64,000 bases of DNA from Deltaproteobacteria bacterium (GCA_016180855.1 JACPAL010000010.1:118988-182987); one strand, 5' to 3'; shown: positions 7,477 to 48,719, counted from the first letter of the stretch. A program made the numbers and translations. The notes: generated by a model not told the origin, from the letters alone.

Positions 7477-7561
7477 GTCCCCTCACCCCAATAGCTCTCT
7501 CCCTTCGACGGGAGAGAGGAGTTGGATTCGATAGTGTCGTTACGAGAGAGGGTGGAGAAAA
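7477..7561 (+). repeat. Palindromic hairpin between nuoJ and nuoK
   Basis: CTCTCTCCC-ttcgac-GGGAGAGAG. Confidence 0.55.
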
Positions 7562-7870: not shown

Positions 7871-7876
7871 CCTTCA

Positions 7877-8359
7877 ATGAGTGCCATTGATTCTGTCCAA
7901 CTCTATACCTCTACAGGGCTCGGTTTTAGGCGCGATGGGGATGTCGCCCATCGTCCCTCCATGGGGGCGGGGGTTTCGTTTACTTTGCTGGAAGATCGGT
8001 TGGCGATTCCGGTGAATATCCATGCGGATCGTCTCCGACTTGGCACAGGTGGAATCGGGGGTGGTATTTGGGGATTGGGAGGGGACCTCTCCGGAAGGAT
8101 CTATTTGGGCAAGGCAAAATACCTGGGGACGATGAGCCTCGACCTTGGTCTCAAGGTTGATAATCTGATTGGAGAGGGGCAAACTGCCGTTGGTTTGACC
8201 CCTTTTGGCCGCATCGGTTTTCATAGGGACAAGGTGAATCTTGAAGGAGGGGTGTTGGCCTACAGCGGTCGTGAAGATATGAAGGCCGGACGCGGTTTTA
8301 TCATGATCAATGTAAATGCCTTGGCACTGGGTCAGGCGATTCTCAGAGAACCTCGTTAA
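7877..8359 (+). CDS. Hypothetical Gly-rich, beta-strand-rich protein inserted in the nuo operon
   Basis: 160 aa. No TM helix, no signal peptide, no recognisable motif. Same reading frame as nuoK, separated from it by a single TAG plus 6 nt. Confidence 0.5.
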   Translation: MSAIDSVQLYTSTGLGFRRDGDVAHRPSMGAGVSFTLLEDRLAIPVNIHADRLRLGTGGIGGGIWGLGGDLSGRIYLGKAKYLGTMSLDLGLKVDNLIGEGQTAVGLTPFGRIGFHRDKVNLEGGVLAYSGREDMKAGRGFIMINVNALALGQAILREPR

Positions 8360-8430
8360 TTATTGGAAAAAGCAATCTCCTTGACCTGGGGGATCTGTTT
8401 TTGTAGCGTGCCGTTCCTAAAATTCCTTTT

Positions 8431-10470: not shown

Positions 10471-10484
10471 AACAAGGAGAGATT

Positions 10485-31115: not shown

Positions 31116-31153
31116 ATATAAATATTATGTATTTACAAGTACTTAATAATATA

Positions 31154-31579
31154 ATGAAGTCAAAAAATCTCTCCAGGGCGGATGTGGCGCGTCTGGCGGG
31201 TCTCTCCCCGGCGGCGGTGACGAAGTGGTTTAGGGAGGTCAATCCAGAGGGGCGGGTCAATGTCGAGAGCCGAACTCTTTTTCGACTTGCCTCCAGTCTG
31301 GGGATTCCTGCTGAAAACCTCTTGAAGCCGACCGCAAATCTCGCTCCTTATCAAACTGAATTTTTATGGGACCGTCTCTATCCCTCTATGGAGGATTTTA
31401 TTTTTGCACTTATCCAGGATCGTCCTTCAGCTATTGCTCGTTTGGTTCAACAAGTTGGATTTTATGAGGCCTCGAAAATTATTGGGAAGAAGGCGATTTC
31501 TCTCTTTGATCGATATAGGCGGTTTATTCATCCTGTTCGTAGAAAACAGTTGGAGGTGTTGTGGCCTCTTTATCTCTAG
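31154..31579 (+). CDS. XRE-like HTH protein (putative antitoxin / AbiEi-like regulator)
   Basis: HTH SRADVARLAGLSPAAVTKWF. An alternative start at 31127 lies inside the AT-rich promoter. Overlaps the downstream gene by 19 nt. Confidence 0.6.
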   Translation: MKSKNLSRADVARLAGLSPAAVTKWFREVNPEGRVNVESRTLFRLASSLGIPAENLLKPTANLAPYQTEFLWDRLYPSMEDFIFALIQDRPSAIARLVQQVGFYEASKIIGKKAISLFDRYRRFIHPVRRKQLEVLWPLYL

Positions 31580-32346
31580 AAGAGATTATTCCTCGTCGAA
31601 CTATTTCTAAGAAGACAACGCCTCAACCACTTCAGATCGCCTTAAAGACGATTTTTTCAGAGTCAGGAGAAGGACTTTGGCTTGTGGGAGGAACCGCCCT
31701 CGCCGGTTATTATGCCGAACATAGAAGATCGGACGATTTGGATTTATTTGCCATGGATACCGATGCACACCGATCGGCTGTCTTGGCCGTGAAAAATTTG
31801 AAAAGGCGAGGGGTTGTTTTCAAAAAGGAGACATCGACCCCCAATTTTTACAAGGCTCATTTGGAATTGGAGGCCTATTTCTTTACGGTGGATATTGTTC
31901 TTGATGAGAATCTTCATCGAGTAGGCAGGGCGATCAGAACGGAGGATGGTGTTTTTGTTGTCGATCTACCGACCCTTTTTTCGATGAAGGTTGCCTGTCT
32001 TTTGACCCGCTGCTCCGAGAAAGATTTATATGATTTGGTCTGGTGCTTTGATCGACAGGGTGAGATTGATGTGGGGGAAATAGTCAAAATGGGTCTTCGT
32101 GTCGATGGAGGGATGAACGTCGAAGGCATGCTAGTCAGTCTGCAGGGAGCGACGCTACGGGAAGAGGCGTGTCATTTCCTTCTGGACAACTCAAAAGCCA
32201 ATGTCCGTACGGCTTATCAGCAGATTGTTGGTCTTCAAAAAAAACTGATTCAATTACTTCTTGATTATGAAAAGCGTAAACCGCTCTCTCCCGAGACAAA
32301 AGCGCTATTGCAGGCAGTTCGTGATCAAAAGAGACTAAAAAAATGA
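31561..32346 (+). CDS. AbiEii/AbiGii-family nucleotidyltransferase toxin-like protein (DUF1814-like)
   Basis: N-terminal LVGGTALAGYY motif, characteristic of AbiEii, followed by ...DLDLF (DxD). Confidence 0.6.
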   Translation: MASLSLEEIIPRRTISKKTTPQPLQIALKTIFSESGEGLWLVGGTALAGYYAEHRRSDDLDLFAMDTDAHRSAVLAVKNLKRRGVVFKKETSTPNFYKAHLELEAYFFTVDIVLDENLHRVGRAIRTEDGVFVVDLPTLFSMKVACLLTRCSEKDLYDLVWCFDRQGEIDVGEIVKMGLRVDGGMNVEGMLVSLQGATLREEACHFLLDNSKANVRTAYQQIVGLQKKLIQLLLDYEKRKPLSPETKALLQAVRDQKRLKK

Positions 32347-34718: not shown

Positions 34719-36578
34719 ATGTTTCCTCTGACGACCGGTCTCCTCTTAATCGTTGCGCTGGGCCTTTTCGGCACGACCCTCTATCGGTGGGGTACGATTT
34801 TTCGCAAAGCGAAACCGGATTCTCGATGGAACGATTTCAGGAGACGTTTCTGGAATCTCCTGACGATTGCCTTTGCCCAAACCAAGATGATCCGTGGGGA
34901 TTTCAGGGCAGGGCTCATGCATGCCATTATCTTTTGGGGATTTTTAGTCATAGCGCTTCGGACAATCCTGCTTTTTGGAATCGGGTTTGAGGCCGACTTC
35001 GGGCGATCGTTTCTGGAATCAGTGGCCGGGCGGTTTTATATTCTCTCTCTCCCTGTTGTTGAAGGGCTTGTGTTGCTGGCGGTCGGTTATGCGGCCTATC
35101 GGAGATGGTTTGTTAAACCGGGGCGTCTGACTCTTTCTGCGGAGGGGCTCATTATCCTCGTCGCGATTGCGTTACTCATGGTCAGTGATTTTGCCATTGA
35201 TGGGACAACGGGTGCCCTGCAGACGGCGGCCTATTTTTTTCATATTATCCTGGTCCTCGCCTTCTTGAACTATCTCCCGTATGGCAAGCATTTTCATATC
35301 CTGACCTTCCTCCCGAATGTCTTTTTCATGAGGACAACGCCTCTGGGTCAGCTTAGAAATCTTAATCTCGAGGATCCGAATGCGACCTCTTTTGGGATGG
35401 GCAAGCTTGAGGATCTCACCTGGAAAGATATGTTGGATGTCGCGACCTGTACGGAGTGTGGACGGTGTTCCTCAGTTTGTCCTGCGACCAACACGGGAAA
35501 GATTCTCAGTCCCAAGCAGCTTAATATTGATGAGAGGAGGGAATTAAGGAAGGGACCTGAGGGGCCGGAAGGAGAAAAATTTCTCTCGCCCCATCTTATT
35601 GATCCTGAGGTTTTCTGGTCCTGCACCACCTGCCGGGCCTGTGAAGAGGCCTGTCCGGTCGGGATTGAGTTTGTTGATCGAATTGTTGGGACGCGTCGGC
35701 ACATGGTTCTCACTCAGGGAGTCATGCCGACCGAGGTTCAGAATACGTTCAGAAATATGGAGACTCATTCGAACCCCTGGGGCTTGGCGGCCGATGATCG
35801 TGCGGAATGGTGCAAGGGTCTTGGTGTCAAAATATTTGCCGAGAAGCCGGATGCCGAGTATCTCTATTTTGTCGGCTGTGCCGGCTCTTTTGATGATCGG
35901 AACAAACGGATTGCCACCGCCTTTGTTAAAATTTTGCAGAAGGCACATGTTGACTTCGCAATTTTAGGAAAGGAGGAGTGTTGTACCGGGGATCCGGCCC
36001 GCCGGATCGGCAATGAGTACCTCTTTCAGACGCTGGCCAAACAAAACATTGAGATGATGAACCGATACAAGGTGAAGAAGATCCTGACGGCCTGTCCCCA
36101 CTGTTTCAACACCCTTGGAAATGAATACCCGCAGTTCGGTGGAAATTATGAAGTGATCCATCACACCGATTTTGTCTATCAGTTGATTCGTGAGGGGAGG
36201 GTCCGGCCGGTCTCACCGCTTCCTCAACGAGTCACCTACCACGACTCCTGCTATCTGGGGCGTTACAATGGGGTTTACGACGCCCCTCGTGAGATTTTGA
36301 AATCAATTCCCGGCGCTGAAGTTGTCGAGGCGCCTCTCTCCCGCTCCAATGGCCGATGTTGTGGTGCCGGAGGTGGTCGGATGTGGATGGAAGAGAGGGT
36401 CGGCAAGCGTGTCAATCACCAGCGCTTAGAGGATCTTCAAGAGGCGAGTCCCCATGTTATTGCGAGCGCCTGTCCTTTCTGTATCACGATGCTTCGGGAT
36501 GCGACGAGAGACAAGCATCTTGAAGAGCAGGTTCAGACCAGGGATGTGATTGAATTAGTTGCAGAGGCGATGGGCTAG
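34719..36578 (+). CDS. Fused membrane di-heme-b (HdrE/DsrM/NarI-like) plus HdrD/DsrK-like Fe-S CCG-domain oxidoreductase
   Basis: Five N-terminal TM helices with conserved His residues. 2x[4Fe-4S] motifs (CTECGRCSSVCP, CTTCRACEEACP). Two CCG domains (CCTGDP...CPHCFNTLG, CCGAGGG...CPFCITM). Confidence 0.8.
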   Translation: MFPLTTGLLLIVALGLFGTTLYRWGTIFRKAKPDSRWNDFRRRFWNLLTIAFAQTKMIRGDFRAGLMHAIIFWGFLVIALRTILLFGIGFEADFGRSFLESVAGRFYILSLPVVEGLVLLAVGYAAYRRWFVKPGRLTLSAEGLIILVAIALLMVSDFAIDGTTGALQTAAYFFHIILVLAFLNYLPYGKHFHILTFLPNVFFMRTTPLGQLRNLNLEDPNATSFGMGKLEDLTWKDMLDVATCTECGRCSSVCPATNTGKILSPKQLNIDERRELRKGPEGPEGEKFLSPHLIDPEVFWSCTTCRACEEACPVGIEFVDRIVGTRRHMVLTQGVMPTEVQNTFRNMETHSNPWGLAADDRAEWCKGLGVKIFAEKPDAEYLYFVGCAGSFDDRNKRIATAFVKILQKAHVDFAILGKEECCTGDPARRIGNEYLFQTLAKQNIEMMNRYKVKKILTACPHCFNTLGNEYPQFGGNYEVIHHTDFVYQLIREGRVRPVSPLPQRVTYHDSCYLGRYNGVYDAPREILKSIPGAEVVEAPLSRSNGRCCGAGGGRMWMEERVGKRVNHQRLEDLQEASPHVIASACPFCITMLRDATRDKHLEEQVQTRDVIELVAEAMG

Positions 36579-36595: not shown

Positions 36596-36937
36596 TTAAG
36601 CGACTCCCTTTTCAATGTTCTTCAGTGTGGTTCTTGCCTGCCTGATTCTTTCGGCAATGCTTCGGCAGACAGTGTCGCAAATGGCGGTAATGTTGAAATC
36701 TGCGATCTTGTAATAGATGGATGTCCCTTCCTTCCTGGAAGCCAAGATGTGCGCGGTGGTCAGGATTCCCAAATGTTTTGAGACATTCGACTGACTCGCC
36801 CCGGTCTCCTGGATGATCTCGGAGACGGTCTTTTCGCCGTCGTGGAGAAACCGCAAGATTTTCAGTCGTGTCGGTTCCCCCAGGCTCCTTAAAAAAGTGG
36901 CGACTTGATCGAGGGTCTCATTCGAAAGCGTTCTCAC
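36596..36937 (-). CDS. ArsR/SmtB-family transcriptional regulator
   Basis: wHTH (SQSNVSKHLGILTTAHIL). Divergent from the HTH-EIIA/Ehr operon. Confidence 0.8.
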   Translation of the reverse strand: MRTLSNETLDQVATFLRSLGEPTRLKILRFLHDGEKTVSEIIQETGASQSNVSKHLGILTTAHILASRKEGTSIYYKIADFNITAICDTVCRSIAERIRQARTTLKNIEKGVA

Positions 36938-37081
36938 GGGCTACCTCCCTTGAACTATCAATAACCCTATAACTATAAGCACAAGAGGATATATTCTCAT
37001 ATGCTCATTATTAGATTGATAAATCAAGCAAGAAATGTATATCCTCCAGGCCCGTTTTCGAAGATTCAAAGGGAACTATTT

Positions 37082-37765
37082 ATGGATCTGAGTGTGCGAG
37101 ATCTGGTGCGACTCTTTCAGGTCTCCGAAAAGACAATTTACCGCTGGATCAAGGAGAAGGAGCTTCCGACCTACAAGGTCCACGATCAGTATCGCTTTAG
37201 TCGTTCCACACTTTTGGAATGGGCGCGAAGCCAACGGATCGCGATTCCACCGGAGGCGTTTCAGGAGGAATTCGAGCGGGGTGAGGTGTCGCTTTCTCAA
37301 GCAATCGTCCAGGGTGGAATCCACTATCAGGTGTCGGGCAAGACCCGGGAAGAGGTGATTTGTTCGATCGCCCGTCTCCCCAAACTCCCCTTGGGATTGA
37401 CCGCGGAGGATTTGGCATCGCTTCTGCTTGCTCGGGAGAGTCTCTCGTCGACCGGGATCGGCCAAGGCATTGCAATCCCTCATGTGAAAGACCCGATTGT
37501 CTTGCCGATCAAAGTGCCGTCGGTCTCCGTCTGTTTTTTGGAGAAACCGATCAATTTTGAGGCGATTGATGGGGCGCCTGTCCATACCTTTTTTCTCCTC
37601 CTCTCCCCAACGATCCGGGATCACCTAAGACTTTTATCCAAGATAGCCTTTATTATCCACGATCCGGTTGTTCTGGGAATGATGATTCAGCGAGAGTCAC
37701 AGGAGAGGCTTCTCACAAAAATCAACGCGGTGGAGGCGAATCTTCCGAAGGAGCCGAAACGATGA
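37082..37765 (+). CDS. HTH (Xis/MerR-type, HTH_17) fused to a PTS EIIA type-2 (PtsN/EIIA-Ntr-like) domain
   Basis: N-terminal LSVRDLVRLFQVSEKTIYRWIKEKELPTY, and GIAIPHVK with the phosphorylatable-His motif. The stop overlaps the downstream ATG. An alternative start lies at 37001. Confidence 0.7.
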   Translation: MDLSVRDLVRLFQVSEKTIYRWIKEKELPTYKVHDQYRFSRSTLLEWARSQRIAIPPEAFQEEFERGEVSLSQAIVQGGIHYQVSGKTREEVICSIARLPKLPLGLTAEDLASLLLARESLSSTGIGQGIAIPHVKDPIVLPIKVPSVSVCFLEKPINFEAIDGAPVHTFFLLLSPTIRDHLRLLSKIAFIIHDPVVLGMMIQRESQERLLTKINAVEANLPKEPKR

Positions 37766-39735
37766 CTTTATTTCTGGTCGCCGTCGGTCTTCTGCTCTGT
37801 GCCTCGGTTTTCTCCTTTGCTGCGGGGGGAAAAACGGTGCGGAAGTTCTTTGGGTGTGCGGGTGTCTTTGCTGGATCGATGATCGGCCTGATCTTCTCCC
37901 TGCGGGCCCTCGTCCGGGGAGAATCGGAAACGATCAGCCTGGGGTCACCTCTTCCGGCGCTGACGCTCGCTTTAGGCATTGATCCCTTAAGCGCCTATTT
38001 TCTCGTTGCTGTTTTTGGGCTTTCGCTTCTCGCTGCACTTTATGCCTGGGGGTATCTCGAGGACCAGGAATCTTTACTGCCGAGTCTCCCGTTTTTTCCG
38101 CTTCTGGTTGCCTCAATGGCAACCGTCGTGGCGGTCCGCGATGGATTTTTTTTCCTCATTGTTTGGGAAGTGATGTCTCTTGCCTCTTTCTTTCTTGTCA
38201 CGGCCGAGCATGGTCTGCGTGGGGCCCGCCATGCGGGATGGATCTATTTGATTGCCACTCACCTGGCGACCGCCTTTCTGATGGCGTTTTTCATCCTTCT
38301 CTGTAAAAAGACGGGATCGTTTGCCTTCGACAGTTTTGTCGATCGTGCTTTTCCTTCCCCCTTCTTCACCAGCCTCCTTTTTTTCTTTGCCTTGATCGGT
38401 TTTGGTACGAAGGCGGGAATTTTTCCCTTTCACGTCTGGCTCCCGCATGCTCATTCGGCGGCACCCAGTTACATCTCCGCTCTGATGTCCGGTGTCATGA
38501 TCAAGACGGGGATCTATGGGCTCTTAAGAGTCTTGACTTTCCTTGGGACTCCGCCGGTCTGGTGGGGAAGTGTCTTGATCCTGCTCGGACTCTTCTCCGC
38601 TTTTCTCGGTATCCTCCATGCCTTGGTGCAAAAGGATCTGAAGCGCTTGCTAGCCTACTCCAGCATTGAGAACATTGGGATCATCATGGTCGGGATGGGA
38701 CTCGGAGTCATCGGTATGGCCGAAAAGAATTCACTGATCATGCTTCTCGGTTTCGGTGGGGCCCTGTTCCACGTCTGGAATCATGCCCTTTTCAAGGGAC
38801 TCCTTTTTTTTGGGGCAGGAAGTGTTATCCACGCTACCCACTCACGAATCCTTGAACGGTTGGGCGGACTCTTGAAAAAAATGCCGGTGACGGGCACCAC
38901 TTTTTTCATGGGGGCTGTGGCTCTCTGCGGTCTTCCACCCCTCAATGGTTTTGTGAGTGAATGGTTGATTTATTGGGGGGGCTTTCATGGGCTTTCAACG
39001 CTCTCTCACCTGCCATTCTTTTTATCGGTTGCCGCCGTTATTGGGATCGCCTTTGCGGGAGGATTGGCCATCGTCTGTTTTTCGAAGGCCTTTGGTGTTG
39101 TTTTTTTGGGGGAACCGAGGGGGACAAAAATTAATGAGGTTCAAGAAGCGACCCTCTCTGAAAGAATCGCCATGGGGATGTTGGCCCTCCTCTGTGGCAT
39201 TTTGGGGCTCTTTTCCAACCTCATCTGGCCGCTTATTGAGCAGACCACGGCAACCCTTGATCCCCTGATTCTCGACCCAGCCCATGAGGTTGTCGTGCCT
39301 CTCCTCTCCCTCAGCAGAATTTTTATCCTCCTTCTTGGTCTTTTCCTGATTCTTTGGGTGATTCGTGCCTTGATTTTCCGGACGAGGGCTGTTCGCAAAT
39401 CGGTCACGTGGGATTGCGGTTTTGCCCTTCCCTCTGCTCGAATGCAGTACACCGGTGCCTCCCTGGTTGAGCCGCTGATGAACTTTTTCAAACCGATTTT
39501 GAGAGTTGAGACACGTTGTGAGAGGCCGAGAGGACTTTTTCCAAAAGAGACCTGTTTTGAACAACAGGTTGAGGACCTTGCGGAGCATGGGATCTTTCGT
39601 CCGTTGTTTCAAAAGATTTCCGATCTCTTTTCGGCCTTGAGGGCACTTCAGGGCAGTCATGTTCAAAATTATCTTGTCCTGATTTTTGGCGCCCTGATTT
39701 TTTTGATCCTGTGGGAGGTCTGGTTTGGAATCTGA
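37762..39735 (+). CDS. HyfB/HycC/NuoL-like antiporter-type membrane subunit of a group-4 hydrogenase-related (Ehr-like) complex
   Basis: 657 aa Mrp/NuoL-type polytopic protein (WLPHAHSAAP). Confidence 0.8.
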   Translation: MTLFLVAVGLLLCASVFSFAAGGKTVRKFFGCAGVFAGSMIGLIFSLRALVRGESETISLGSPLPALTLALGIDPLSAYFLVAVFGLSLLAALYAWGYLEDQESLLPSLPFFPLLVASMATVVAVRDGFFFLIVWEVMSLASFFLVTAEHGLRGARHAGWIYLIATHLATAFLMAFFILLCKKTGSFAFDSFVDRAFPSPFFTSLLFFFALIGFGTKAGIFPFHVWLPHAHSAAPSYISALMSGVMIKTGIYGLLRVLTFLGTPPVWWGSVLILLGLFSAFLGILHALVQKDLKRLLAYSSIENIGIIMVGMGLGVIGMAEKNSLIMLLGFGGALFHVWNHALFKGLLFFGAGSVIHATHSRILERLGGLLKKMPVTGTTFFMGAVALCGLPPLNGFVSEWLIYWGGFHGLSTLSHLPFFLSVAAVIGIAFAGGLAIVCFSKAFGVVFLGEPRGTKINEVQEATLSERIAMGMLALLCGILGLFSNLIWPLIEQTTATLDPLILDPAHEVVVPLLSLSRIFILLLGLFLILWVIRALIFRTRAVRKSVTWDCGFALPSARMQYTGASLVEPLMNFFKPILRVETRCERPRGLFPKETCFEQQVEDLAEHGIFRPLFQKISDLFSALRALQGSHVQNYLVLIFGALIFLILWEVWFGI

Positions 39736-40651
39736 ATTTTTCTCTCTCATCACCCCTCTTCTGATCTTAACGGGGACCCCTCCATTCTTCCTGGGGGTGA
39801 TTGCGAAGACGAAGGCGTTTTTTGCAGGACGGAAAGGACCCCCTCTCTTGCAGGCGTATTATGATCTTGCAAAACTCCTTCGGAAGGGGGCCGTTGTGAG
39901 CCGGAGTGCCTCTTGGCTCCTCCGTATCGCCCCCGTGGCAATCCTTGCCTCCCTTCTGGTTGCGGGACTTCTTCTCCCGATCGTGGGAGAGGCACCTCTT
40001 CACTTCGAAGGAGATCTGATTCTTTTTGCCTATCTGCTTGCGGTTGGTCGTTTCTTTACGATCCTGGCGGCGCAGGATGTTGGTTCAAGCTTTGAAGGGA
40101 TGGGGGCCAGTCGCGAGGCGGCCTTTGGGGCGTTGTCGGAACTCTCCTTCTTTTTGGGACTCCTCGTCTTGTCGATCTTGCACGGGACGGTTTCCTTAAA
40201 TGGCCTCTTTGAGGCAACCTCCTCCCGCCTCCTGGTGGCCCCGGTGATCTTTCTCCTTTTCGGGACTTTTTTTTTCACCCTCTTGACGGAAAATTCCAGG
40301 ATGCCGATCGATGATCCGACGACCCATCTGGAACTCACAATGATTCACGAGGTCATGATTTTGGATTACTCGGGACCAGACCTGGGGCTGATTCTCTACG
40401 GCGCTTCGGTGAAGCTCTTCCTCTTTATGGTTTTTGTATCCCAGATCCTTTGGCCTCCTGTCGGCTATCTTGGCCCTTTAGCGATCGGCGCGCTCCTTCT
40501 TAAGGTGACGGGTGTGGCGATTGGAATCGGTGTTGTCGAGGCAGCGGTTGCGCGTCTTCGATTGATAAAGATTCCACAACTTCTCATCGCCAATTTTGTC
40601 GTTACTGCTCTGGCCCTGCTCGTGATGCTTTTTGGAAAGGGGATCGGATGA
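39725..40651 (+). CDS. HycD/HyfC/NuoH-like membrane subunit
   Basis: 308 aa with about eight TM helices. NuoH/HycD family pattern. Confidence 0.75.
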   Translation: MESEFFSLITPLLILTGTPPFFLGVIAKTKAFFAGRKGPPLLQAYYDLAKLLRKGAVVSRSASWLLRIAPVAILASLLVAGLLLPIVGEAPLHFEGDLILFAYLLAVGRFFTILAAQDVGSSFEGMGASREAAFGALSELSFFLGLLVLSILHGTVSLNGLFEATSSRLLVAPVIFLLFGTFFFTLLTENSRMPIDDPTTHLELTMIHEVMILDYSGPDLGLILYGASVKLFLFMVFVSQILWPPVGYLGPLAIGALLLKVTGVAIGIGVVEAAVARLRLIKIPQLLIANFVVTALALLVMLFGKGIG

Positions 40652-41283
40652 ACTGGATCTTGATTGGGGTTCTCCTCTCCGCCTTTTTTATTCTCGGCAT
40701 CTCCCGACTTTCGGCCTGCATCCGCGCCGTTGCGTTTCAAGGGGCCTTGCTTTCGGTTCTTCCGATCTTTGTGAAGGGGTGGAACGACCCTCATGCCCTT
40801 TTTCTCTTCGGTGGAACCCTCATCATCAAGGCGATGGTGATTCCATCCCTTCTCTTCCGTTCCATCCGCGAGGCGACCATCCGTGAGGAGGCGGAGCCGA
40901 TCGTCAGTCTCCACCTTTCTCTTTTGGGGGGAGGGGGAATCATGGTGGCCGCCTTTTCAAGCCTGAACGCCCTCCCGCATCTTGCCCCCCCTTTTTCGCC
41001 CCTTTTTATTCCTGCAGCGCTCTCGATTGTCCTGATCGGTCTCTTCCTCCTCATCTCGCGAACCAAGGCGATCAGCCAGGTGATCGGGTTCCTCGTGCTG
41101 GACAACGGGATTTTTCTCTTCGGGATGACGCTCGTTGCCGAGTTTCCGATGACCGTCGAGCTGGGGGTTCTCCTGGATCTCCTGGTGGGGGTCTTCGTGA
41201 TGGGGATTATGATTTATCACATCAACCGGACGTTCGACCATATTGATACGGGGGCCTTGGCGACCCTGAGGGATACCGAATGA
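40648..41283 (+). CDS. HyfE-like small membrane subunit
   Basis: 211 aa polytopic protein. Position and size match HyfE. 4-nt overlaps on both sides. Confidence 0.6.
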   Translation: MNWILIGVLLSAFFILGISRLSACIRAVAFQGALLSVLPIFVKGWNDPHALFLFGGTLIIKAMVIPSLLFRSIREATIREEAEPIVSLHLSLLGGGGIMVAAFSSLNALPHLAPPFSPLFIPAALSIVLIGLFLLISRTKAISQVIGFLVLDNGIFLFGMTLVAEFPMTVELGVLLDLLVGVFVMGIMIYHINRTFDHIDTGALATLRDTE

Positions 41284-42716
41284 TTGCCATTTCATTGGTC
41301 AGCATTCCGGTATTTTTGGGGTTTGGGATCCTCTTTTTTAGAAAAGAGGAACAGAGGAGGCTTCGCCGTCGAATACTTCTGGGAGGGGCGGTCTTTCATC
41401 TCGTCGGCACCGCCGCCCTTCATCTTTCAGAACCTCAAGCGTTGGGGGAGCTGTTTATCACCGTCGATTCACTCGGTCTCCTTTTCCTGTCGATCACGAG
41501 TCTTCTTTTTTTTCTCGTTGCCCTTTATGCCCAAGGCTATTTTCATCATGAGCATGAAGTGCCACGAGAGGGTGTAAGTCATCTCTTTGTTCCGTGCATG
41601 TTCTTCTTTCTGGCAGCGATGACGCTTGTGACTGTGACCTCACACATAGGCCTCTTGTGGGTTGCGATCGAGGCGACAACACTCGCCTCGGCACCGCTTA
41701 TCTATTACCATCGTCACCACCAGGCCCTGGAGGCAGCCTGGAAGTATCTCCTCATCTGTTCCGTTGGTATTGCCCTGGCGTTCTTGGGGATCTTCTTTAC
41801 GGCCGTCGCAGCGAAGGGGACGGGGATCCATCTCTTCGTCTCTTCACTCTCTGCCCAGGCAGGATCCATGGACCCTCGTTGGCTCCGGATCGGTTTTCTC
41901 CTGGTTCTCGTCGGATTCGGGACGAAGGTGGGGCTTGCCCCCTTGCACAACTGGCTCCCGGACGCCCATAGTGAGGCGCCGTCACCCGTCTCGGCCCTTC
42001 TCTCGGGGGCCCTCTTGAATTGTGCCTTCCTGGGGATCCTGCGCTTTTATCAAATCTTGATAGCCGCAGGGCTCGCGGAGTTTGCCCAAAAACTCCTTAT
42101 CCTCCTGGGTCTCATTTCACTTTTTGTTGCCGCCCTCTTCATCAGCGGTCAGCGTGATTACAAGCGGATGCTCGCCTACTCCAGCATCGAGCATATGGGG
42201 ATCCTCGCCCTTGCGGTTGGGATCGGGGCCGATTTTGCGGGTCTCCTCCATGCGGTCAATCATTCTCTGACAAAGGCGCTTTTGTTTCTGGTTGCGGGAC
42301 AGATCCTCATTCTCTATCGGACAAAGATTGCCTCCGATGTTCATGGTCTTCTGAAAACAATCCCGCCTACCGGCTTCCTTTGGGTCTTCGGCGGGTTGGC
42401 GATTATCGGAACACCCCCGTTCAGTCTCTTCGTGAGTGAATTCTTGATCCTCAAGGCCGGCCTTGCCCGAGGGCATTTTGTCGCTATGGGCCTCTACCTT
42501 CTCTTTTTGGGAATTATCTTTGTCTCCTTCTCGAGGATTCTCTTCGCCATGGTTCAAGGGGATCGACGGGAACTGCCTGTTAAAACCGTTCCTTGGTCGA
42601 TGCTCTTTTCGCCGGCGTTTCTCGCCGCCTTCGTGCTCCTTTTTGGTCTCTATCTTCCGCAACCGGTCGTCGTGATTCTCAGGGAAGCGGCCCGTCTTAT
42701 TCGGGGTGTCTCATGA
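41280..42716 (+). CDS. HyfF/HyfD/NuoM/N-like antiporter-type membrane subunit
   Basis: 478 aa (WLPDAHSEAPSPVSAL). Confidence 0.8.
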   Translation: MIAISLVSIPVFLGFGILFFRKEEQRRLRRRILLGGAVFHLVGTAALHLSEPQALGELFITVDSLGLLFLSITSLLFFLVALYAQGYFHHEHEVPREGVSHLFVPCMFFFLAAMTLVTVTSHIGLLWVAIEATTLASAPLIYYHRHHQALEAAWKYLLICSVGIALAFLGIFFTAVAAKGTGIHLFVSSLSAQAGSMDPRWLRIGFLLVLVGFGTKVGLAPLHNWLPDAHSEAPSPVSALLSGALLNCAFLGILRFYQILIAAGLAEFAQKLLILLGLISLFVAALFISGQRDYKRMLAYSSIEHMGILALAVGIGADFAGLLHAVNHSLTKALLFLVAGQILILYRTKIASDVHGLLKTIPPTGFLWVFGGLAIIGTPPFSLFVSEFLILKAGLARGHFVAMGLYLLFLGIIFVSFSRILFAMVQGDRRELPVKTVPWSMLFSPAFLAAFVLLFGLYLPQPVVVILREAARLIRGVS

Positions 42717-44191
42717 ACCGGTTTTCAAGCCTTCAGAATGCCCTCCCACTCTCTATTCAAGAGATCCCCGTGATGGACCTTGATTCCTGGCGGAATGAAA
42801 TCCTTAAAATCTGTCGTGAGTCCAAAGGGAGACTCATCGCCCTCTTCTCTGCCCCGGCAGGAAAGGTCTCGCGGCTCTTTGGGGTCGTGGGAATTGATCA
42901 GCATGGAGAGCTCCGAGTCGGTGCGACGGACCTTGGTCCTAACAGGAGTTATGCTTCGCTTACCCCGGAGCTCCCCGAGGCGCATCTCTTTGAAAGGGAG
43001 CTCTTTGAGGAAGAGGGGATCCTGCCAGAGGGTCACCCTTGGCGGAAGCCGGTCCGAAAACATGAAACCGGCCCCGAAGGGGCGTATCCTTTTTACGAAA
43101 TTGCGGGAGAGGAGATCCATGAGGTGGCCGTTGGGCCGGTGCATGCCGGGATCATCGAACCGGGACACTTTCGTTTTCAATGCCACGGGGAAAAGGTCCT
43201 GCACCTTGAAATTCGGCTTGGATACCAGCATCGCGGTGTTGAAAAGCTTCTTCCGAAATCAAAACCGACTCGGCGTGCTGTCCTCGCCGAATCGGTTGCG
43301 GGAGACACGGTAGTTGGTCATGCCTTGACCTACGCCCACGCCATTGAGGCGCTTGCCGGCAGGTCGGTTCCTCAAAGGGCCAAGTGGCTTCGCGTTGTGG
43401 TGCTCGAATTGGAAAGACTCTCTAATCACATTGGCGATCTGGGAGCCTTGGGGGCGGATATCGGTTTTCTCCCTGCCTCGGCCTATTTTGGAAGGCTTCG
43501 CGGAGAATTCTTAAATCTCCTCATGGAACTCACCGGAAACCGATACGGCCGCTCGTTTATTCGACCGGGTGGGGTCCTCACGGATCTTTCTGAAAAAAAA
43601 CGGGTGGATTTTCAACGACGACTCGCCGTGACATCGCGCGAAATTCGCGAGGTGGCCGATCTCTTTTTTTCGACCTCATCGGTCCTCGCGCGTCTCGAGC
43701 ATACCGGCGTGGTGACCCGCGAGATCGCTCAGTCTCTCGGTCTGGTCGGTCCTGCCGCACGGGCAAGCAATCTCATACGTGACATTAGGCACGACTATCC
43801 AACCGGGGCGTATCGTTTCCACTACATCCCTCCCGTCCGGCTTACCTCAGGGGATGTCTATGCACGGGCAAGGATCCGGTCTCTGGAGGGCAAGCGGTCG
43901 TTGGAGTTTCTTGAGGAGGCGCTCAAAGCGCTTCCCCCTGACAAGATTTTTCATCTCTGTGAGGGGTTGCAAGCCTCTTCCCTGGTTGTCAGTTTGATCG
44001 AGGGGTGGCGTGGCGAAATTGCCCATATTGCGATGACCGATGCCCGAGGGGAGATTGATCGTTACAAGATTGTCGATCCATCGTTTCACAACTGGATGGG
44101 GCTCTCTCTTGCAATGCGTGACGGACAGATCTCCGACTTTCCACTTTGTAACAAGAGCTTCAATCTTTCGTACGCCGGGCACGATTTGTAG
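42713..44191 (+). CDS. NuoC-NuoD-like 'large subunit' (HycE-like) lacking all four NiFe-ligand cysteines
   Basis: The ATG at 42713 overlaps the upstream TGA. N-terminal NuoC-like ERELFEEEGI..GHPW. GPVHAGIIEPGHFRF. The L1 position reads ...AESVAGDTVVGHALTY with no CxxC. The C-terminus reads IVDPSFHNW instead of DPCxxCxxR. Confidence 0.8.
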   Translation: MNRFSSLQNALPLSIQEIPVMDLDSWRNEILKICRESKGRLIALFSAPAGKVSRLFGVVGIDQHGELRVGATDLGPNRSYASLTPELPEAHLFERELFEEEGILPEGHPWRKPVRKHETGPEGAYPFYEIAGEEIHEVAVGPVHAGIIEPGHFRFQCHGEKVLHLEIRLGYQHRGVEKLLPKSKPTRRAVLAESVAGDTVVGHALTYAHAIEALAGRSVPQRAKWLRVVVLELERLSNHIGDLGALGADIGFLPASAYFGRLRGEFLNLLMELTGNRYGRSFIRPGGVLTDLSEKKRVDFQRRLAVTSREIREVADLFFSTSSVLARLEHTGVVTREIAQSLGLVGPAARASNLIRDIRHDYPTGAYRFHYIPPVRLTSGDVYARARIRSLEGKRSLEFLEEALKALPPDKIFHLCEGLQASSLVVSLIEGWRGEIAHIAMTDARGEIDRYKIVDPSFHNWMGLSLAMRDGQISDFPLCNKSFNLSYAGHDL

Positions 44192-44205
44192 GAGAGAAGA
44201 AAAAA

Positions 44206-44982
44206 GTGTGGGACCTTCTTAAAAATCGGTGGAAACAAAGGTACAGGACGCAACCCTTTCCTCCAAGAGAGTTGCTGCCGGAGCCGTTTCGCGGGAGACC
44301 GGTTATTGATCCGAAGAGATGTGAGGACGGCTGCCGGCGGTGTGCCGAGGTCTGTCCCACAAGTGCCATTTTGGCCTCTCCGCTCCGGCTCGATCTTGGC
44401 CGATGCCTCTTTTGTCAGGAGTGTGTGTTGGCCTGTCCTGAAGGGGCGATCACTTACTCTCAGGACCATCGGATGGCGATCGGAAACAAAACGGATCTTC
44501 TCTTGACCGGAGAGGAGATAAAGCTTGCCCAGGCCTTGGATCAAAAGATGCGAAAACTCTTTGGGCGATCTCTCAAGCTCCGGGAGGTCTGCGCCGGAAG
44601 CTGCAACGGCTGCGATCTGGAGCTCCAGGCCTTGAATAATGTCGTTTTCGATCTCTCCCGATTCGGGATCCAGTTTGTCGCCTCGCCCCGTCATGCCGAC
44701 GGACTTGTGATTACGGGACCTGTTACGAAAAACATGACGCTTGCCTTGATGAAGAGCTACGAGGCGGTGCCGGATCCGAAGATTGTGATTGCGGTCGGGG
44801 CCTGCGCGATCAGCGGTGGACCGTTTGAGGGGAGTCCTGAGGTCTTAAATGGGGCGGACGGGACAGTGCCGGTTGATCTCTATATCCCAGGTTGTCCGCC
44901 ACATCCCCTTACGATCCTGGATGGACTTCTGAGATTGTTAGGCAGGATCGAGGAGGAGGATCACCCCTTGAAATCCATATAA
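44206..44982 (+). CDS. Fusion of a 2x[4Fe-4S] ferredoxin (HycF/NuoI-like) with a HycG/NuoB-like small subunit
   Basis: CEDGCRRCAEVCP and CLFCQECVLACP, then CAGSCNGCD...GACAISGG...IPGCPP. Confidence 0.8.
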   Translation: MWDLLKNRWKQRYRTQPFPPRELLPEPFRGRPVIDPKRCEDGCRRCAEVCPTSAILASPLRLDLGRCLFCQECVLACPEGAITYSQDHRMAIGNKTDLLLTGEEIKLAQALDQKMRKLFGRSLKLREVCAGSCNGCDLELQALNNVVFDLSRFGIQFVASPRHADGLVITGPVTKNMTLALMKSYEAVPDPKIVIAVGACAISGGPFEGSPEVLNGADGTVPVDLYIPGCPPHPLTILDGLLRLLGRIEEEDHPLKSI

Positions 44983-45006: not shown

Positions 45007-46254
45007 ATGTCAGACGATTTTGAATCAGCGGTATCCTCCTGGACCTCCCAGCTTGAAAAGGGGGGACGGGATGTGCTCGAAAAGGCACATTCCTGGGAAC
45101 TGTACGAGCAGACCGTAGCGACCGGTTTCTATCCCTATTTTCAGGCATTGGATGAGAATCAGGGCCCGATTGCGCGCTATGAAGGGCGACAGATCCTCAT
45201 GTTCGGCTCCAATAATTATCTGGGACTCACGACCCATCCCAAGGTGCGTGAGGCGGCGGTCCAGGCGGTTCGACAGTACGGGACGAGCATGACCGGTTCA
45301 CGCTTTTTGAACGGGACCCTTAAACTCCACGAGGAACTCGAGGGACGACTGGCCGAGTTTTTTGGCAAGGAATCGGCGCTTGTCTTTGCCACCGGCTATC
45401 AGGCGAACCTCGGGATGCTGACCGCCTTGATTAACAGGGAGTCGGTCGCCGTTGTCGATAAGTATGCCCACGCCTCGGTTCACGACGGGTGTCGTTTGAT
45501 GCAGGGTGAAAGCATTCTTTTTAAACATAACGATTGTATCGATGCCGAGCGGGTTTTATCCGACATCCCTCCCGATCGTGGTGCCTTGCTCGTCGTCGAT
45601 GGTGTTTACAGTATGGAGGGGGATCTGGCTCCACTGCCGGATCTGGTCCGTTTAGCCAGAAAATACAAGATCAGGATCGCCGTCGATGATGCCCACGGTC
45701 TTGGTGTGATGGGACCGGGGGGAAAAGGGACGACACATTATTATGGTGTTCAGGATGAGGTCGATCTTTTGGTCGGGACCTTCAGTAAATCACTGGCCTC
45801 GATCGGCGGTTTTGTCGCCTCGGACAAAAAGACGATCGACTTCATAAAGCATTTCGGTCGTCCCATGATTTTTTCCGCATCACTCGCCCCTTCTTGCACC
45901 GCTGCGGCGTTGGTGGCGCTTGAGATCTTGGAAAATGAACCGGAGCGGGCCGATCAGGTCCGGAAAAATAGCTCCTTCTTGAAGAGAGGCCTGGATGAGA
46001 TCGGCTACGAAACTGGTCAGGCGGCGTCAGCGGTTGTTCCTGTTATCATAGGAGATAGCATCAAGACGTTCATGATCTGGAAGGAATTGATGGACCTGGG
46101 TGTTTATACCAATCCGGTCCTCTATCCCGCGGTTGCCAAGGGGCGGGAGCTGTTACGGGTCAGCTGTCTTGCCACTCATACACGGGACCATCTCCATCAG
46201 GCGCTCGATATTTTCAGAAAGGTCGCCCAGAATTATGAAATCGGTTCACGTTGA
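45007..46254 (+). CDS. Serine palmitoyltransferase / 8-amino-7-oxononanoate synthase-family PLP enzyme (alpha-oxoamine synthase)
   Basis: 415 aa. PLP-lysine region GTFSKSL, and FGSNNYLGL. Confidence 0.8.
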   Translation: MSDDFESAVSSWTSQLEKGGRDVLEKAHSWELYEQTVATGFYPYFQALDENQGPIARYEGRQILMFGSNNYLGLTTHPKVREAAVQAVRQYGTSMTGSRFLNGTLKLHEELEGRLAEFFGKESALVFATGYQANLGMLTALINRESVAVVDKYAHASVHDGCRLMQGESILFKHNDCIDAERVLSDIPPDRGALLVVDGVYSMEGDLAPLPDLVRLARKYKIRIAVDDAHGLGVMGPGGKGTTHYYGVQDEVDLLVGTFSKSLASIGGFVASDKKTIDFIKHFGRPMIFSASLAPSCTAAALVALEILENEPERADQVRKNSSFLKRGLDEIGYETGQAASAVVPVIIGDSIKTFMIWKELMDLGVYTNPVLYPAVAKGRELLRVSCLATHTRDHLHQALDIFRKVAQNYEIGSR

Positions 46255-47368
46255 GCCTGTCGTCAGCAAGAGACAGCTCAAGGAGTTTATTAAGCTACCG
46301 TGGCGGATTTATGAGTCGGACCCCGCGTGGATTCCTCCTTTGATTCAAGAGAGGCTCGATTTTTTAAATCCAAAAAAGAATCCCTTTTTTGAACATGCGG
46401 ATGTCCAGCTTTTTTTGGCCTACAAAAACGGCGAGCTAGTTGGCAGGACTTCTGTGCAGATTGATCACCTCTTCAACCAGATTCATAAGGAGAAAACCGG
46501 TTTTTTTGGATTCTTTGAGTCCGAAAATGATCCCGAAATTGCGGTCGCCTTGATCAAAAAATGCGAAGGCTGGCTCAAAGAGAAGGGGATGACAAAGGTT
46601 CGTGGCCCTTTTAGTTTTTCCTCAATGGATGAGTGCGGTTTTTTGGTCGACGGTTTTCAATATGCACCTTTTATCCTTACAGCCCACAGTACCCCCTATT
46701 ATCCTGCCCTGGCGGAACAGGCCGGCTTGGGGAAGGTGAAGGATCTCTACTGTTGGAAATACGACGGGAGGAATCCGATTCCCGAAATGCCGCTCGCGAT
46801 TGCCGAAGAGGTACGGAAACATCCGGGGCTTGTCGTGCGAGAGGTCGATCCAGGACACCTCGAACGGGATGTTCGGATTATCATGGATGTTTTTAACTCC
46901 GCCTGGTCTCAAAACTGGGGGTTTGTTCCGATGACCGAGGCGGAGCTCAAAAAGGCGGCGCAGGATTTTAAATTGATTCTTGAGCCGACGATGGCGTTGA
47001 TTGCCGAGGTCGATGGGAAACCGGCCGCAATCTCATTATCTCTTCCTAACATTAATCAAGCGATTCGGGATCTCGATGGGAAGCTCTTCCCGTTGGGTCT
47101 ATTGAAACTCCTCTACCGGGTGAAGCGGAAAAAAATCAGCGGCTATCGGCTCATCGCGCTTGGAGTTAAGAAGGAGTTTCGTGGTTCCGTCCTCGGTGGT
47201 CTTTCTGTCCTCCTCTATGTTGAGATGCACCGGCGTGGCAAAAAACTGGGGCTTAAAGAGTGTGAGCTCTCTTGGACATTGGAAGATAACGAAAAGATCA
47301 ACACGGGTATCGAATTTATGGGAGGAGAACGATATAAAACCTATCGCATCTACGAGAAAACGTTATGA
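46235..47368 (+). CDS. BioF2-like / FemAB-like GNAT acyltransferase (candidate bacterial ceramide synthase-type N-acyltransferase)
   Basis: 377 aa. Start at 46235, a 20-nt overlap with the upstream gene. The PF13480-like family is typically found next to BioF/Spt paralogs. Confidence 0.6.
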   Translation: MKSVHVEPVVSKRQLKEFIKLPWRIYESDPAWIPPLIQERLDFLNPKKNPFFEHADVQLFLAYKNGELVGRTSVQIDHLFNQIHKEKTGFFGFFESENDPEIAVALIKKCEGWLKEKGMTKVRGPFSFSSMDECGFLVDGFQYAPFILTAHSTPYYPALAEQAGLGKVKDLYCWKYDGRNPIPEMPLAIAEEVRKHPGLVVREVDPGHLERDVRIIMDVFNSAWSQNWGFVPMTEAELKKAAQDFKLILEPTMALIAEVDGKPAAISLSLPNINQAIRDLDGKLFPLGLLKLLYRVKRKKISGYRLIALGVKKEFRGSVLGGLSVLLYVEMHRRGKKLGLKECELSWTLEDNEKINTGIEFMGGERYKTYRIYEKTL

Positions 47369-47727
47369 CAACAACCCTTCAACAAGCCCTTATTAAAGCT
47401 GGTTTGGTCAAAAAGGAACAGGCCGACAGGATTCAGAAGGCCAAGGTCCCTGCGAGAGTCCATTCATCGGCCAAGCCCAAGTCCGTCGGATTTATTGAGC
47501 GCAAACATCTCCATCATATCCGGACCGACTGTGAGGCGTGCGGAAAGAACTCGCCCGATGTTGAGTATTACGAACATCAAAACAAAAGCCTCGCCAGGAA
47601 ATGGCTCTGTGTGCAGTGTGCCGATACCCACAACATTCTGGACACCTATCGCCAGACGATGCAGAGCTCCCATGCCCAAAGCAAGCTATTCCGGCGTCAG
47701 TACGGTCCGACCAAGGTCTTTAAATGA
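47365..47727 (+). CDS. Small zinc-ribbon protein (two CxxC pairs)
   Basis: 120 aa. CEACG...CVQC. Overlaps its neighbours by 4 nt on each side. Confidence 0.5.
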   Translation: MTTTLQQALIKAGLVKKEQADRIQKAKVPARVHSSAKPKSVGFIERKHLHHIRTDCEACGKNSPDVEYYEHQNKSLARKWLCVQCADTHNILDTYRQTMQSSHAQSKLFRRQYGPTKVFK

Positions 47728-48719
47728 TACCAAAGAAGGCATTTGTCACCGGCGCGACCGGTTTCTTGGGGAGTCATCTCATTGACCGGCTCCTCGAGAA
47801 GGGATGGGAGGTTCATGCCTTGGTCCGCAAGTCGTCCAATCTCCGCTGGCTTTCGGGGAAAAAGATCAATCTTTATTACGGTGATGTTGTTGGCGATCTT
47901 GCGGCCCTCCGGGAAGGTCTTAAAGAGGTCGATCTCTGCTTTCATTTGGCCGGTGTCATCCGGGCAGCAAGGCCCTCTGACTATGACAAGGTTAATGCCG
48001 AGGGGACCCGGAACGTCCTCGAGTCGTTGCTTCAAGTCAACCCCAAGGTGGGGAAGGTTGTTGTGGTGACGAGTTTGGCCGCCTCCGGTCCCGCACAGAA
48101 TGGGAGGCCACTCAACGAGACAGATGACTGTCGTCCGGTCACCGATTATGGGAAGAGCAAGCTCAAGGCCGAAAAAATAGCGATGAGCTATTGTGACAGG
48201 CTACCGGTCACGATTATCCGCCCTCCTGGCATTTATGGTCCGCGTGACACCCAGATTTACCACTATTTTAAGATGGCAACGCGAGGTTTTATTATTCTCC
48301 CGCGAGGAGGCGAGCGAAGGCTGAACCTTGTGCACTCGGACGATGTCGTTCAAGGGATTCTGTTGGCCGCTGAAAGCCCACAATCAACCGGCGAGACTTT
48401 TTTTATTGGAGACGGTGAGAATTACAGTTGGGAAGAGATTGTGGATCAGGTTTCGGCGGCCGTCCGGCCCCGAGGCGTTTTCAAACTGAGGCTTCCCAAG
48501 TCGATGGGCTATCTTCTGGGGGGGTGTGGTGAAATTTTCATGCGGCTGACCGGTCAGATAATCCCGATCAACCTCACCAACATAAAAAATTTTTTCAAAG
48601 GAAACTGGATTTTGGATATCGGCAAGGCCCGGCGAATTCTTGGTTATAGGCCGACCCATCCACTGGCCGAAGGACTTCAGGAGACCGCGGCGTGGTATCG
48701 CAAGCAGGGCTGGCTTTAG
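47724..48719 (+). CDS. NAD-dependent epimerase/dehydratase-family SDR (candidate ceramide reductase CerR-like)
   Basis: GATGFLGSHL Rossmann motif and a YxxxK context. Confidence 0.75.
   Translation: MIPKKAFVTGATGFLGSHLIDRLLEKGWEVHALVRKSSNLRWLSGKKINLYYGDVVGDLAALREGLKEVDLCFHLAGVIRAARPSDYDKVNAEGTRNVLESLLQVNPKVGKVVVVTSLAASGPAQNGRPLNETDDCRPVTDYGKSKLKAEKIAMSYCDRLPVTIIRPPGIYGPRDTQIYHYFKMATRGFIILPRGGERRLNLVHSDDVVQGILLAAESPQSTGETFFIGDGENYSWEEIVDQVSAAVRPRGVFKLRLPKSMGYLLGGCGEIFMRLTGQIIPINLTNIKNFFKGNWILDIGKARRILGYRPTHPLAEGLQETAAWYRKQGWL

Follow-up and report, generated by a model that had tools for sequence, protein, structure and literature searches.

An intact ehr operon with a dedicated HTH-EIIA regulator gene in a Deltaproteobacteria genome

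The Ehr (Ech/energy-converting-hydrogenase-related) complexes are defined by a gene cluster resembling that of a group 4 hydrogenase whose large subunit lacks the cysteines of the NiFe site (PMC6349859, PMC10284858, PMC12342949, PMC3569383). They were first seen in Geobacter sulfurreducens, where GSU0739-0745 encode EhrA-1, EhrC, EhrL, EhrS and other subunits (PMC3569383, PMC7894505), and are present in many microorganisms, with the cysteines absent 'in most cases' and the function unknown (PMC3569383, PMC7894505, PMC6349859, PMC10284858, PMC7304191). In Geobacter every Ehr subunit is expressed, at levels that depend on the electron donor (PMC7894505), and the complex is found in about half of Nitrospirales genomes (PMC12342949). 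The class is regarded as an intermediate to complex I (PMC4758237), and our literature searches returned no characterised Ehr complex. Here we describe an ehr locus in a 64,000-nucleotide stretch of a Deltaproteobacteria bacterium genome (GCA_016180855.1, JACPAL010000010.1:118988-182987; hereafter the window, whose numbering is used throughout), in which an earlier note, made from the sequence alone, had recognised a six-gene Ehr-type complex.

The locus is an intact seven-gene operon encoding an Ehr complex together with a dedicated regulator gene. The Ehr class is already known and widespread, and for the complex itself the earlier note is a correct recognition of that class: the large subunit has no NiFe ligands, as in the published definition, and the same gene order is seen in relatives from Geomonas and Pelobacter, of the Geobacter lineage. 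What we add is a conserved HTH-EIIA regulator, a near-invariant metal-free pocket in the large subunit, and the finding that no partner dehydrogenase is conserved. Overall, we favour, at a probability of about 0.6, a ferredoxin-fed ion-translocating oxidoreductase encoded by a seven-gene operon with its own regulator.

The ehr operon and its regulator gene

Seven plus-strand open reading frames (ORFs) lie within 37001-44982, their ends overlapping or nearly abutting. Gene identities were assigned by Pfam, NCBIfam and PDB profile searches together with HMMER alignments, and the features are as follows.

36990..37045, plus strand: candidate promoter/operator; block of about 45 nt conserved relative to the closest relative, plus a sigma-70-like match (weak evidence)
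37082..37765, plus strand: HTH_17 and PTS_EIIA_2 protein, 227 aa (PF12728, 5e-13; PF00359, 4.8e-22)
37762..39735, plus strand: EhrA, HyfB/NuoL-type antiporter-like subunit, 657 aa, with a C-terminal extension (NF005086, 603 bits; PF00361; PF00662)
39725..40651, plus strand: EhrB, HycD/NuoH-like coupling subunit, 308 aa (PF00146, 2.5e-34)
40648..41283, plus strand: EhrC, HyfE-like small membrane subunit, 211 aa (NF008556, 2.4e-19; weak NuoK-like PF00420 match, residues 124-204)
41280..42716, plus strand: EhrD, HyfF-type antiporter-like subunit, 478 aa (NF005044, 380 bits; PF00361)
42713..44191, plus strand: EhrL, NuoC-NuoD/HycE-like large subunit without NiFe ligands, 492 aa (PF00346; weak PF00329; PDB matches)
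44206..44982, plus strand: EhrS, fusion of a 2x[4Fe-4S] ferredoxin and a NuoB/HycG-like domain, 258 aa, GTG start (Fer4 families; PF01058)

Stop and start codons overlap as ATGA at 37762, 40648, 41280 and 42713, and an 11-nt overlap lies at 39725. Only ehrS, which starts with GTG at 44206, follows a gap, of 14 nt, in which there is an AGGAGA ribosome-binding site. The order EIIA-A-B-C-D-L-S is kept among related loci. Pfam, NCBIfam and PDB matches agree with the earlier note on the identities and order of the six ehr genes; the size of the conserved unit needed correction, since it comprises seven genes once the HTH-EIIA regulator is included. The NCBIfam models that match are named for hydrogenase 4 (NF005086, 'hydrogenase 4 subunit B'; NF008556, 'hydrogenase 4 membrane subunit'; NF005044, 'hydrogenase 4 subunit F'), and the equivalog scores of all ehr proteins fall below the curated cut-offs, so the subunits are relatives of the Hyf, Hyc and Nuo families rather than members of them. 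No Rfam match was found in 34-46 kb of the window, terminator-like sites were no commoner than in shuffled sequence, and a single weak promoter match was obtained.

The HTH-EIIA ORF opens at 37001, but translation probably starts from the ATG at 37082: homologues align only from ORF residue 28 onwards, the gene call in the closest relative gives 227 aa, and an AGGGA stands 5' of this ATG. Its stop codon overlaps the ehrA start, indicating translational coupling to the first subunit gene. Among the 52 related loci with at least 7.5 kb of upstream sequence, tblastn located an HTH-EIIA homologue upstream of Ehr on the same strand in 38, and 36 of these directly abut an antiporter-like gene; in four loci, mostly of Verrucomicrobiota, the gene stands between an upstream EhrA-like gene and the remaining operon. 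The reverse look-up gave the same association, with six of six HTH-EIIA homologues (46-60% identical; Sumerlaeota, Krumholzibacteriia, Lentisphaeria and others) directly preceding EhrA-B-C-D-L-S. His134 of the GIAIPH motif, equivalent to the phosphorylated His of EIIA, and His181 are invariant in 30 of 30 sequences, and the score against the PtsN equivalog is 59.6 bits (cut-off 138.7). The protein would most likely couple Ehr expression or activity to a PTS(Ntr)-type phosphorelay through the conserved His, a link of which we found no mention in the Ehr literature that could be searched.

Upstream of this gene, a sigma-70-like promoter match (TTGATA-18-TATCCT) lies at 37016-37045. Comparison of two sequences, the window and its closest relative (L086), revealed a near-identical intergenic block of about 45 nt (36990-37036, TATATTCTCATATGCTCATTATTAGATTGATAAATCAAG...) with indels on both sides, which may be an operator for an ArsR or the HTH-EIIA protein. 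The block overlaps a palindrome and the sigma-70-like -35 element. An ArsR-family (HTH_5) gene (36596-36937, minus strand) is divergent from the operon; the same arrangement occurs in L086 (8508-8852, minus strand), where the ArsR gene is the first of a CbiMNQO-type cobalt/nickel transporter operon, and this neighbour is not present at more distant Ehr loci.

The EhrL pocket, the EhrS clusters and the membrane arm

Among the 50 PDB matches listed for EhrL were MbhL (1.1e-44), HycE (2.8e-44), Nqo4 (9.4e-36) and MBS 6u8y_L (8.5e-25), the highest identity being 31% (MbhL). None of the 50 is described as an Ehr complex, and therefore no Ehr structure appears to have been solved. In alignments with MbhL and HycE, the N-terminal L1 motifs ('ermCGICsfsH' and 'drvCGICgfaH', respectively) fall on 'esvAGDTvvgH' of EhrL, with A196 and T199 in place of the cysteines, while the C-terminal L2 motif of HycE ('sLDPCYS(C)') falls on 'sFNLSYA(G)', with S486 and G489 in their place. 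These substitutions bear out the earlier claim of a large subunit without NiFe ligands. The motif positions given for it were right at the N-terminal site and wrong at the C-terminal one, where VDPSFHNW had been named; the true L2 equivalent is the NLSYAGHDL end of the protein, whose last residue is L492. VDPSFHNW aligns with 'EPTFPNL' of MbhL and 'APSFVNL' of Nqo4 and, by this alignment, is an element common to hydrogenases and complex I, not an L2 ligand motif. The error is one of placement only, and the conclusion of NiFe loss holds; EhrL contains just four cysteines (34, 157, 416 and 479) and no CxxC.

The earlier note had also allowed that shifted gaps might bring the cysteines back into register. 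No cysteine was found at the four NiFe positions in any of 81 genome homologues, which span more than 10 phyla, or in any of 120 database homologues; the residues there are A/S/G196, T/S/A199, S486 and G489. In the genome set, every one of the 81 proteins stops precisely at the position of L492, which corresponds to the mature C-terminus of processed hydrogenases and likewise to the C-terminus of NuoD. Over the combined set of 201 sequences, 51 EhrL positions are invariant, including E149, H152, F153, R154, G197, D198, N480, K481, S482, F483, S486, Y487, G489 and D491. The conserved pocket segments are E149-P-G-H-F-R, G197-D198 and N480-K-S-F-N-L-S-Y-A-G-x-D-L. Whereas the E149-R154 loop is also present in HycE, D198, N480 and K481 have no counterpart in HycE or Nqo4, and D198 has none in MbhL either. 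Such near-invariance of the replaced ligand positions and their surroundings argues that the former NiFe pocket is remodelled and under strong selection, not decayed, and a pocket so constrained should bind something. A cysteine-based metal or disulfide site at C157/C479 was considered and rejected, both residues being conserved but their losses independent, with no obligatory pair (70 C/C, 6 A/C and 5 C/N-or-V), as was H490 as an essential ligand, this residue being Phe in 27 of the 81 genomes.

The quinone ligands of complex I are likewise missing from EhrL: Tyr87 and His38 (T. thermophilus Nqo4 numbering) correspond to Gly197 and Ile148. The NuoD encoded in the same window (4017-5138) served as an internal control and has 'STHG' and 'RVDY' at the quinone-ligand positions. 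An AlphaFold model of EhrL (pLDDT 79.8, pTM 0.83) gave as its best Foldseek match HycE of the E. coli formate hydrogenlyase (FHL; 7z0s_E), with a TM-score of 0.81 over the whole length at 25% identity, followed by NuoCD fusion proteins (about 0.79), and this order of whole-length superpositions confirms EhrL as a NuoC-NuoD-type fusion. The most conserved EhrL segments (112-172 and 473-492) are the lowest-confidence segments of the model, a pattern that fits segments becoming ordered only on contact with EhrS, EhrB or a bound ligand. The public record of an identical EhrL (100%, from an uncultured Deltaproteobacteria metagenome-assembled genome (MAG)) is annotated 'hydrogenase'.

The small subunit EhrS retains the electron-transfer sites. 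Its residues 113-253 match MbhJ (8.4e-36), HycG (5.6e-35) and MBS 6u8y_J (1.8e-23) in the PDB, 'GSCNGCD' is identical in MbhJ, and all four proximal-cluster cysteines (C133, C136, C200 and C230) are there. Residues 4-104, with 8 cysteines, match MbhN (2.7e-14) and HycF (1.4e-11). Both the retention of the proximal-cluster cysteines and the HycF-HycG fusion had been described in the earlier note, correctly in each case. Each of the 12 cluster cysteines is kept in 42-49 of 52 family members, and a fused EhrS of about 258 aa is the family norm. From these cysteines EhrS is predicted to carry three Fe-S clusters, two in the NuoI/HycF-like domain and one in the NuoB/HycG-like domain. With a GTG as its true start, the fusion is easily missed by annotation; in a public assembly from the same organism (L087 2739-3248, equal to window 44473-44982), automatic calling placed the ehrS start at an internal codon, leaving 169 aa and losing the ferredoxin domain.

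The membrane arm is small. The cluster contains four membrane genes only, best fitted by Hyf/Hyc models, and a complete NuoA, H, J, K, L, M, N arm is not present; genes for NuoA and NuoJ are not in the ehr cluster. The only PDB matches of EhrB are HycD (9.3e-29) and MbhM (1.3e-15), with no NuoH among them at E<1e-5, and across the Ehr family its loop PIDDPTTHLELTMIHE..DYSG shows high conservation. EhrA and EhrD were aligned to NuoL, NuoM and NuoN from the same window. EhrA retains the Glu of transmembrane helix (TM) 5, the Lys of TM7, TM8 and TM11 and the Glu of TM12, and its C-terminal extension is NuoL-like, aligning with the last NuoL helix. EhrD retains TM5 Glu, TM7 Lys, TM11 Lys and TM12 Glu. 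On these residues, the ion-translocation machinery of EhrA and EhrD looks intact.

Distribution and neighbourhood of ehr loci

Two peptide patterns derived from the alignment of Ehr proteins were run against species-representative genomes and returned at least 600 stretches, and the cysteine-free pocket was checked in the best 80 of these. The 80 loci belong to Omnitrophota, Verrucomicrobiota, Planctomycetota, Gemmatimonadota, Desulfobacterota, Myxococcota, Spirochaetota, Acidobacteriota, Elusimicrobiota, Chlamydiota and others, and the Desulfobacterota include Geomonas, Geobacter and Pelobacter. Three relatives, L012 (Geomonas limicola), L066 (a Pelobacter sp. MAG) and L070 (a Geobacter sp. 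MAG), have an EhrL that is 47-53% identical to that of the window. L012 and L066 also share its gene order, and in L070 the EhrA and EIIA matches lie on the opposite strand. Judged through these three relatives rather than through GSU0744, the window cluster appears orthologous to the Geobacter Ehr.

No partner dehydrogenase was conserved in two clusterings of flanking ORFs or in any lineage examined, and no formate dehydrogenase, HycB-like or NuoEF-like gene adjoins the operon in the window or in about 85 related loci. In a first ORF clustering, antisense ORFs of high-GC loci contaminated clusters 6, 7 and 9-11, and tblastn synteny and a flanks-only clustering took its place. Apart from the HTH-EIIA gene, the clusterings brought out no conserved neighbour of the operon. 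The lack of an accompanying dehydrogenase suggests that electrons come from a soluble donor, for instance ferredoxin. The flanking-ORF clustering likewise returned no conserved sulfur-metabolism gene near Ehr, and hydrogenase maturation genes had no Pfam match among window ORFs between about 3 and 49 kb. A SulP transporter (6-7 loci), a Zn-ribbon protein (7) and a sensor kinase (5) were rejected as conserved partners, being lineage-restricted. A SulP-family anion transporter with a STAS domain adjoins Ehr in loci from different phyla (L004 2567-4366, L036 2318-4225, L043 2242-3915 and L073 12116-14029) and in two of these lies directly upstream of HTH-EIIA on the same strand; SulP is too rare for a partner, though its position may hint at a connection with anions or bicarbonate.

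Several neighbouring genes of the window were also inspected. In a canonical nuo operon (2525-13449, plus strand), Pfam identifies nuoB, C, D, H, I, J, L, M and N (2983-13449), and ORFs placed by position, and not Pfam-scanned, lie at the expected nuoA (2525-2962) and nuoK (7522/7562-7870) sites. As stated in the earlier note, it lacks nuoEFG: nuoD runs directly into nuoH, as in the 11-subunit type. A 160-aa ORF between nuoK and nuoL (7877-8359) has no Pfam match. Closer to ehr, a 619-aa protein (34719-36578, plus strand) combines an N-terminal multi-helix membrane domain with an HdrD/TfrB/DsrK-like 2x[4Fe-4S] and CCG module, and from this composition looks like a membrane-anchored heterodisulfide-reductase-like enzyme. 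This HdrD/DsrK-like CCG protein was rejected as the partner oxidoreductase of Ehr, a homologue lying near Ehr in only one other locus (L017). Downstream, 45007-48719 (plus strand) begins 25 nt past the ehrS stop with a serine-palmitoyltransferase (SPT)-like gene (BioF/Kbl family, SPT model 480 bits); no terminator-like site lies between it and ehrS, and tightly packed genes follow, including an NAD-dependent epimerase/reductase. This is likely a sphingolipid-synthesis cluster, possibly co-transcribed with ehr in the source genome only, and the SPT-like gene was rejected as an Ehr component, as no homologue lies beside Ehr at any other locus. Finally, an HTH_3 protein followed by an AbiEii-family nucleotidyltransferase toxin (31127-32346, plus strand) is a probable type IV toxin-antitoxin pair unrelated to Ehr.

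Proposed function and comparison with known systems

The anatomy of Ehr is that of Ech and Mbh, with a surface 2x[4Fe-4S] input, a proximal cluster, a pocket and two pumps, and we therefore take it to be an ion-translocating oxidoreductase that can run in either direction. The donor, a soluble carrier of low potential and most likely reduced ferredoxin, as it is for Ech and Mbh, would dock on the ferredoxin-like domain of EhrS, and electrons would pass along the three EhrS clusters to a substrate in the metal-free pocket at the EhrL/EhrS/EhrB interface. The accompanying change in charge and protonation would be passed on by the beta1-beta2 loop of EhrL (EPGHFR) and the conserved loop of EhrB (PIDDPTTHLELTMIHE..DYSG), so that EhrD and EhrA move H+ or Na+ across the membrane. 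Running backwards, the complex could use the ion gradient to reduce ferredoxin.

The leading candidate acceptor is a membrane quinone, to which we give roughly one chance in three. The host lineages are often apparently respiring, Tyr487 is invariant, with Asp198 and His203 nearby in sequence, and the placing of the class as an intermediate to complex I (PMC4758237) also speaks for it. Weighing against a quinone are the absence from EhrL of both NuoD ligands, an EhrB that is HycD-like rather than NuoH-like, and the occurrence of Ehr in Riflemargulisbacteria reported to lack quinone biosynthesis and in candidate phyla radiation (CPR) bacteria (PMC6349859, PMC7304191). Other points count against the favoured reading: the TM8 Lys of NuoM and NuoN is Asn in EhrD; HTH-EIIA could be a plain transcription factor with no phosphorelay link; and in the single-chain AlphaFold model EhrL 112-172 and 473-492 (43046-43228 and 44129-44188) have pLDDT <50, so that the arrangement of D198, K481 and Y487 has no usable geometry. 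A more specific version of the proposal is tentative, and we would not bet on it at even odds: in a seven-gene module found in at least hundreds of species, a PTS(Ntr) phospho-signal acting through HTH-EIIA would turn on a ferredoxin-driven or ferredoxin-generating ion pump, whose new metal-free site (D198/T199/N480/K481/S486/Y487, with Glu149 as proton relay) would perform chemistry unlike either H2 formation or the Tyr/His-based quinone reduction of complex I.

PtsN regulates K+ transport, and Ehr could by analogy be a redox-gated or regulated cation/proton antiporter that turns over no substrate, its Fe-S clusters sensing the ferredoxin pool and an EIIA protein exerting control as PtsN does on K+ transporters. 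The Mrp-type antiporter-like subunits of the operon and the tight linkage of the EIIA(Ntr)-like gene, which in four loci separates an EhrA-like gene from the rest, are in keeping with such a role, as are the lack of a recognisable acceptor site and the presence of Ehr in organisms reported to have no quinones (PMC6349859, PMC7304191). We nonetheless consider it rather unlikely, for the complete three-cluster wire to the pocket is conserved and the pocket, with Glu149, D198, N480 and K481, is the most conserved part of EhrL, beyond what a sensor would appear to need. The reduction of a small molecule other than quinone, such as polysulfide or sulfane sulfur, on the proximal cluster or close to it has a precedent in Pyrococcus MBS (formerly Mbx), a group 4 relative that has no hydrogenase chemistry and has kept its cluster chain and membrane arm, and which is matched by both EhrL (6u8y_L) and EhrS (6u8y_J). 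EhrL is, however, far nearer to MbhL and HycE (1e-44) than to MbsL, the extra Mrp-type subunits of MBS are not in the cluster, and the family, which spans many phyla and both aerobes and anaerobes, shows no obvious tie to sulfur and no conserved sulfur-metabolism gene nearby; an MBS-like activity therefore seems unlikely. A third possibility is that Ehr forms the membrane module of a formate-oxidising complex whose formate dehydrogenase (FDH) is encoded elsewhere in the genome. An FDH-Ehr association has been proposed for Margulisbacteria and Saganbacteria (PMC6349859), Ehr subunits of G. sulfurreducens are most abundant on formate (PMC7894505), and the gene order copies those of FHL and Hyf. 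Given that no FDH, HycB-like or NuoEF-like gene neighbours the operon and that the EhrS ferredoxin domain is its sole input module, we think the prospects of this arrangement poorer still.

Two conventional assignments fare worse. A second NuoBCDHLMN paralogue, forming a complex I with a normal quinone site, had been named in the earlier note as the outcome that would overturn its reading, and matches of NuoD and NuoB models to EhrL and EhrS, together with the second-best structural rank of NuoCD fusions, lend it some substance. It is highly improbable because NuoD models score EhrL far below the cut-off (184.7 versus 360), the Tyr87/His38 positions are Gly and Ile whereas the NuoD of the window has both ligands, the ferredoxin fusion is real, and the membrane subunits fit Hyf/Hyc best, with an EhrB that has no NuoH match in the PDB and no NuoA or NuoJ in the cluster. 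Scarcely credible is a working H2-evolving group 4 hydrogenase, or a decaying pseudo-enzyme, even though the source record says 'hydrogenase' and some family members, among them the Desulfotomaculum ruminis EhrL, are reported to retain the four cysteines (PMC3569383). Neither the EhrL of the window nor any of 200 relatives has a cysteine at a ligand position, ehr expression in Nitrospira is not raised by H2 (PMC12342949), and intact, translationally coupled ORFs together with 51 positions that are invariant across phyla exclude decay.

In genome annotation, such clusters should be entered neither as hydrogenases nor as a second complex I. Ehr complexes stand between energy-converting hydrogenases and complex I in evolution, and the HTH-EIIA regulator provides an experimental handle on when the complex is used. 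That protein shares with PtsN, or EIIA(Ntr), the PTS_EIIA_2 domain, the GIAIPH motif and a second conserved His. In contrast to PtsN, a stand-alone protein of about 160 aa, it adds an N-terminal HTH_17 domain and is dedicated to ehr.

Among characterised and described complexes, the Geobacter Ehr has the same subunit set as the window, with a NuoL-like EhrA, a HyfE-like EhrC, EhrL and EhrS, and has likewise lost the NiFe cysteines; Geobacter-type loci and several others have two EhrA genes, whereas the window has one. FHL and hydrogenase-4 of E. coli (HycCDEFG and HyfBCEFGHI, group 4a) supply the best structural and sequence matches for EhrL, EhrB, EhrS, EhrA and EhrD, have an 'EPGHFR' loop identical to that of EhrL, and possess a large subunit that is likewise a NuoC-like/NuoD-like fusion. 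Relative to these, the EhrL of the window has neither NiFe ligands nor a cleavable C-terminal extension, and its cluster has HycF and HycG fused and contains no FdhF, HycB, HyfA or maturation gene. More generally, EhrL departs from the RxCGxCxxxH and DPCxxCxx(H/R) motifs of group 4 [NiFe] hydrogenases, while EhrS provides in one protein both their proximal [4Fe-4S] cluster and their 2x[4Fe-4S] NuoI-like subunit.

Mbh of Pyrococcus furiosus (6CFW), the top sequence match of EhrL and EhrS, is fed by ferredoxin and has no dehydrogenase module, but it differs in keeping the NiFe site and in its 14-subunit, Mrp-rich membrane arm. With the MBS/Mbx sulfane reductase the likeness is weaker, as EhrL is nearer to MbhL and HycE than to MbsL and the additional Mrp-type subunits have no equivalent in the ehr cluster. 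Complex I (Nuo/Nqo) shares with Ehr the core fold of its peripheral arm (NuoB, C, D and I) and the antiporter Glu/Lys pattern, and NuoD, like EhrL, has no NiFe ligands and ends at the same C-terminal position. In contrast to complex I, EhrL is without the Tyr87/His38 ligands, the H subunit of Ehr is HycD-like, and D198, T199, N480, K481 and S486 are specific to Ehr.

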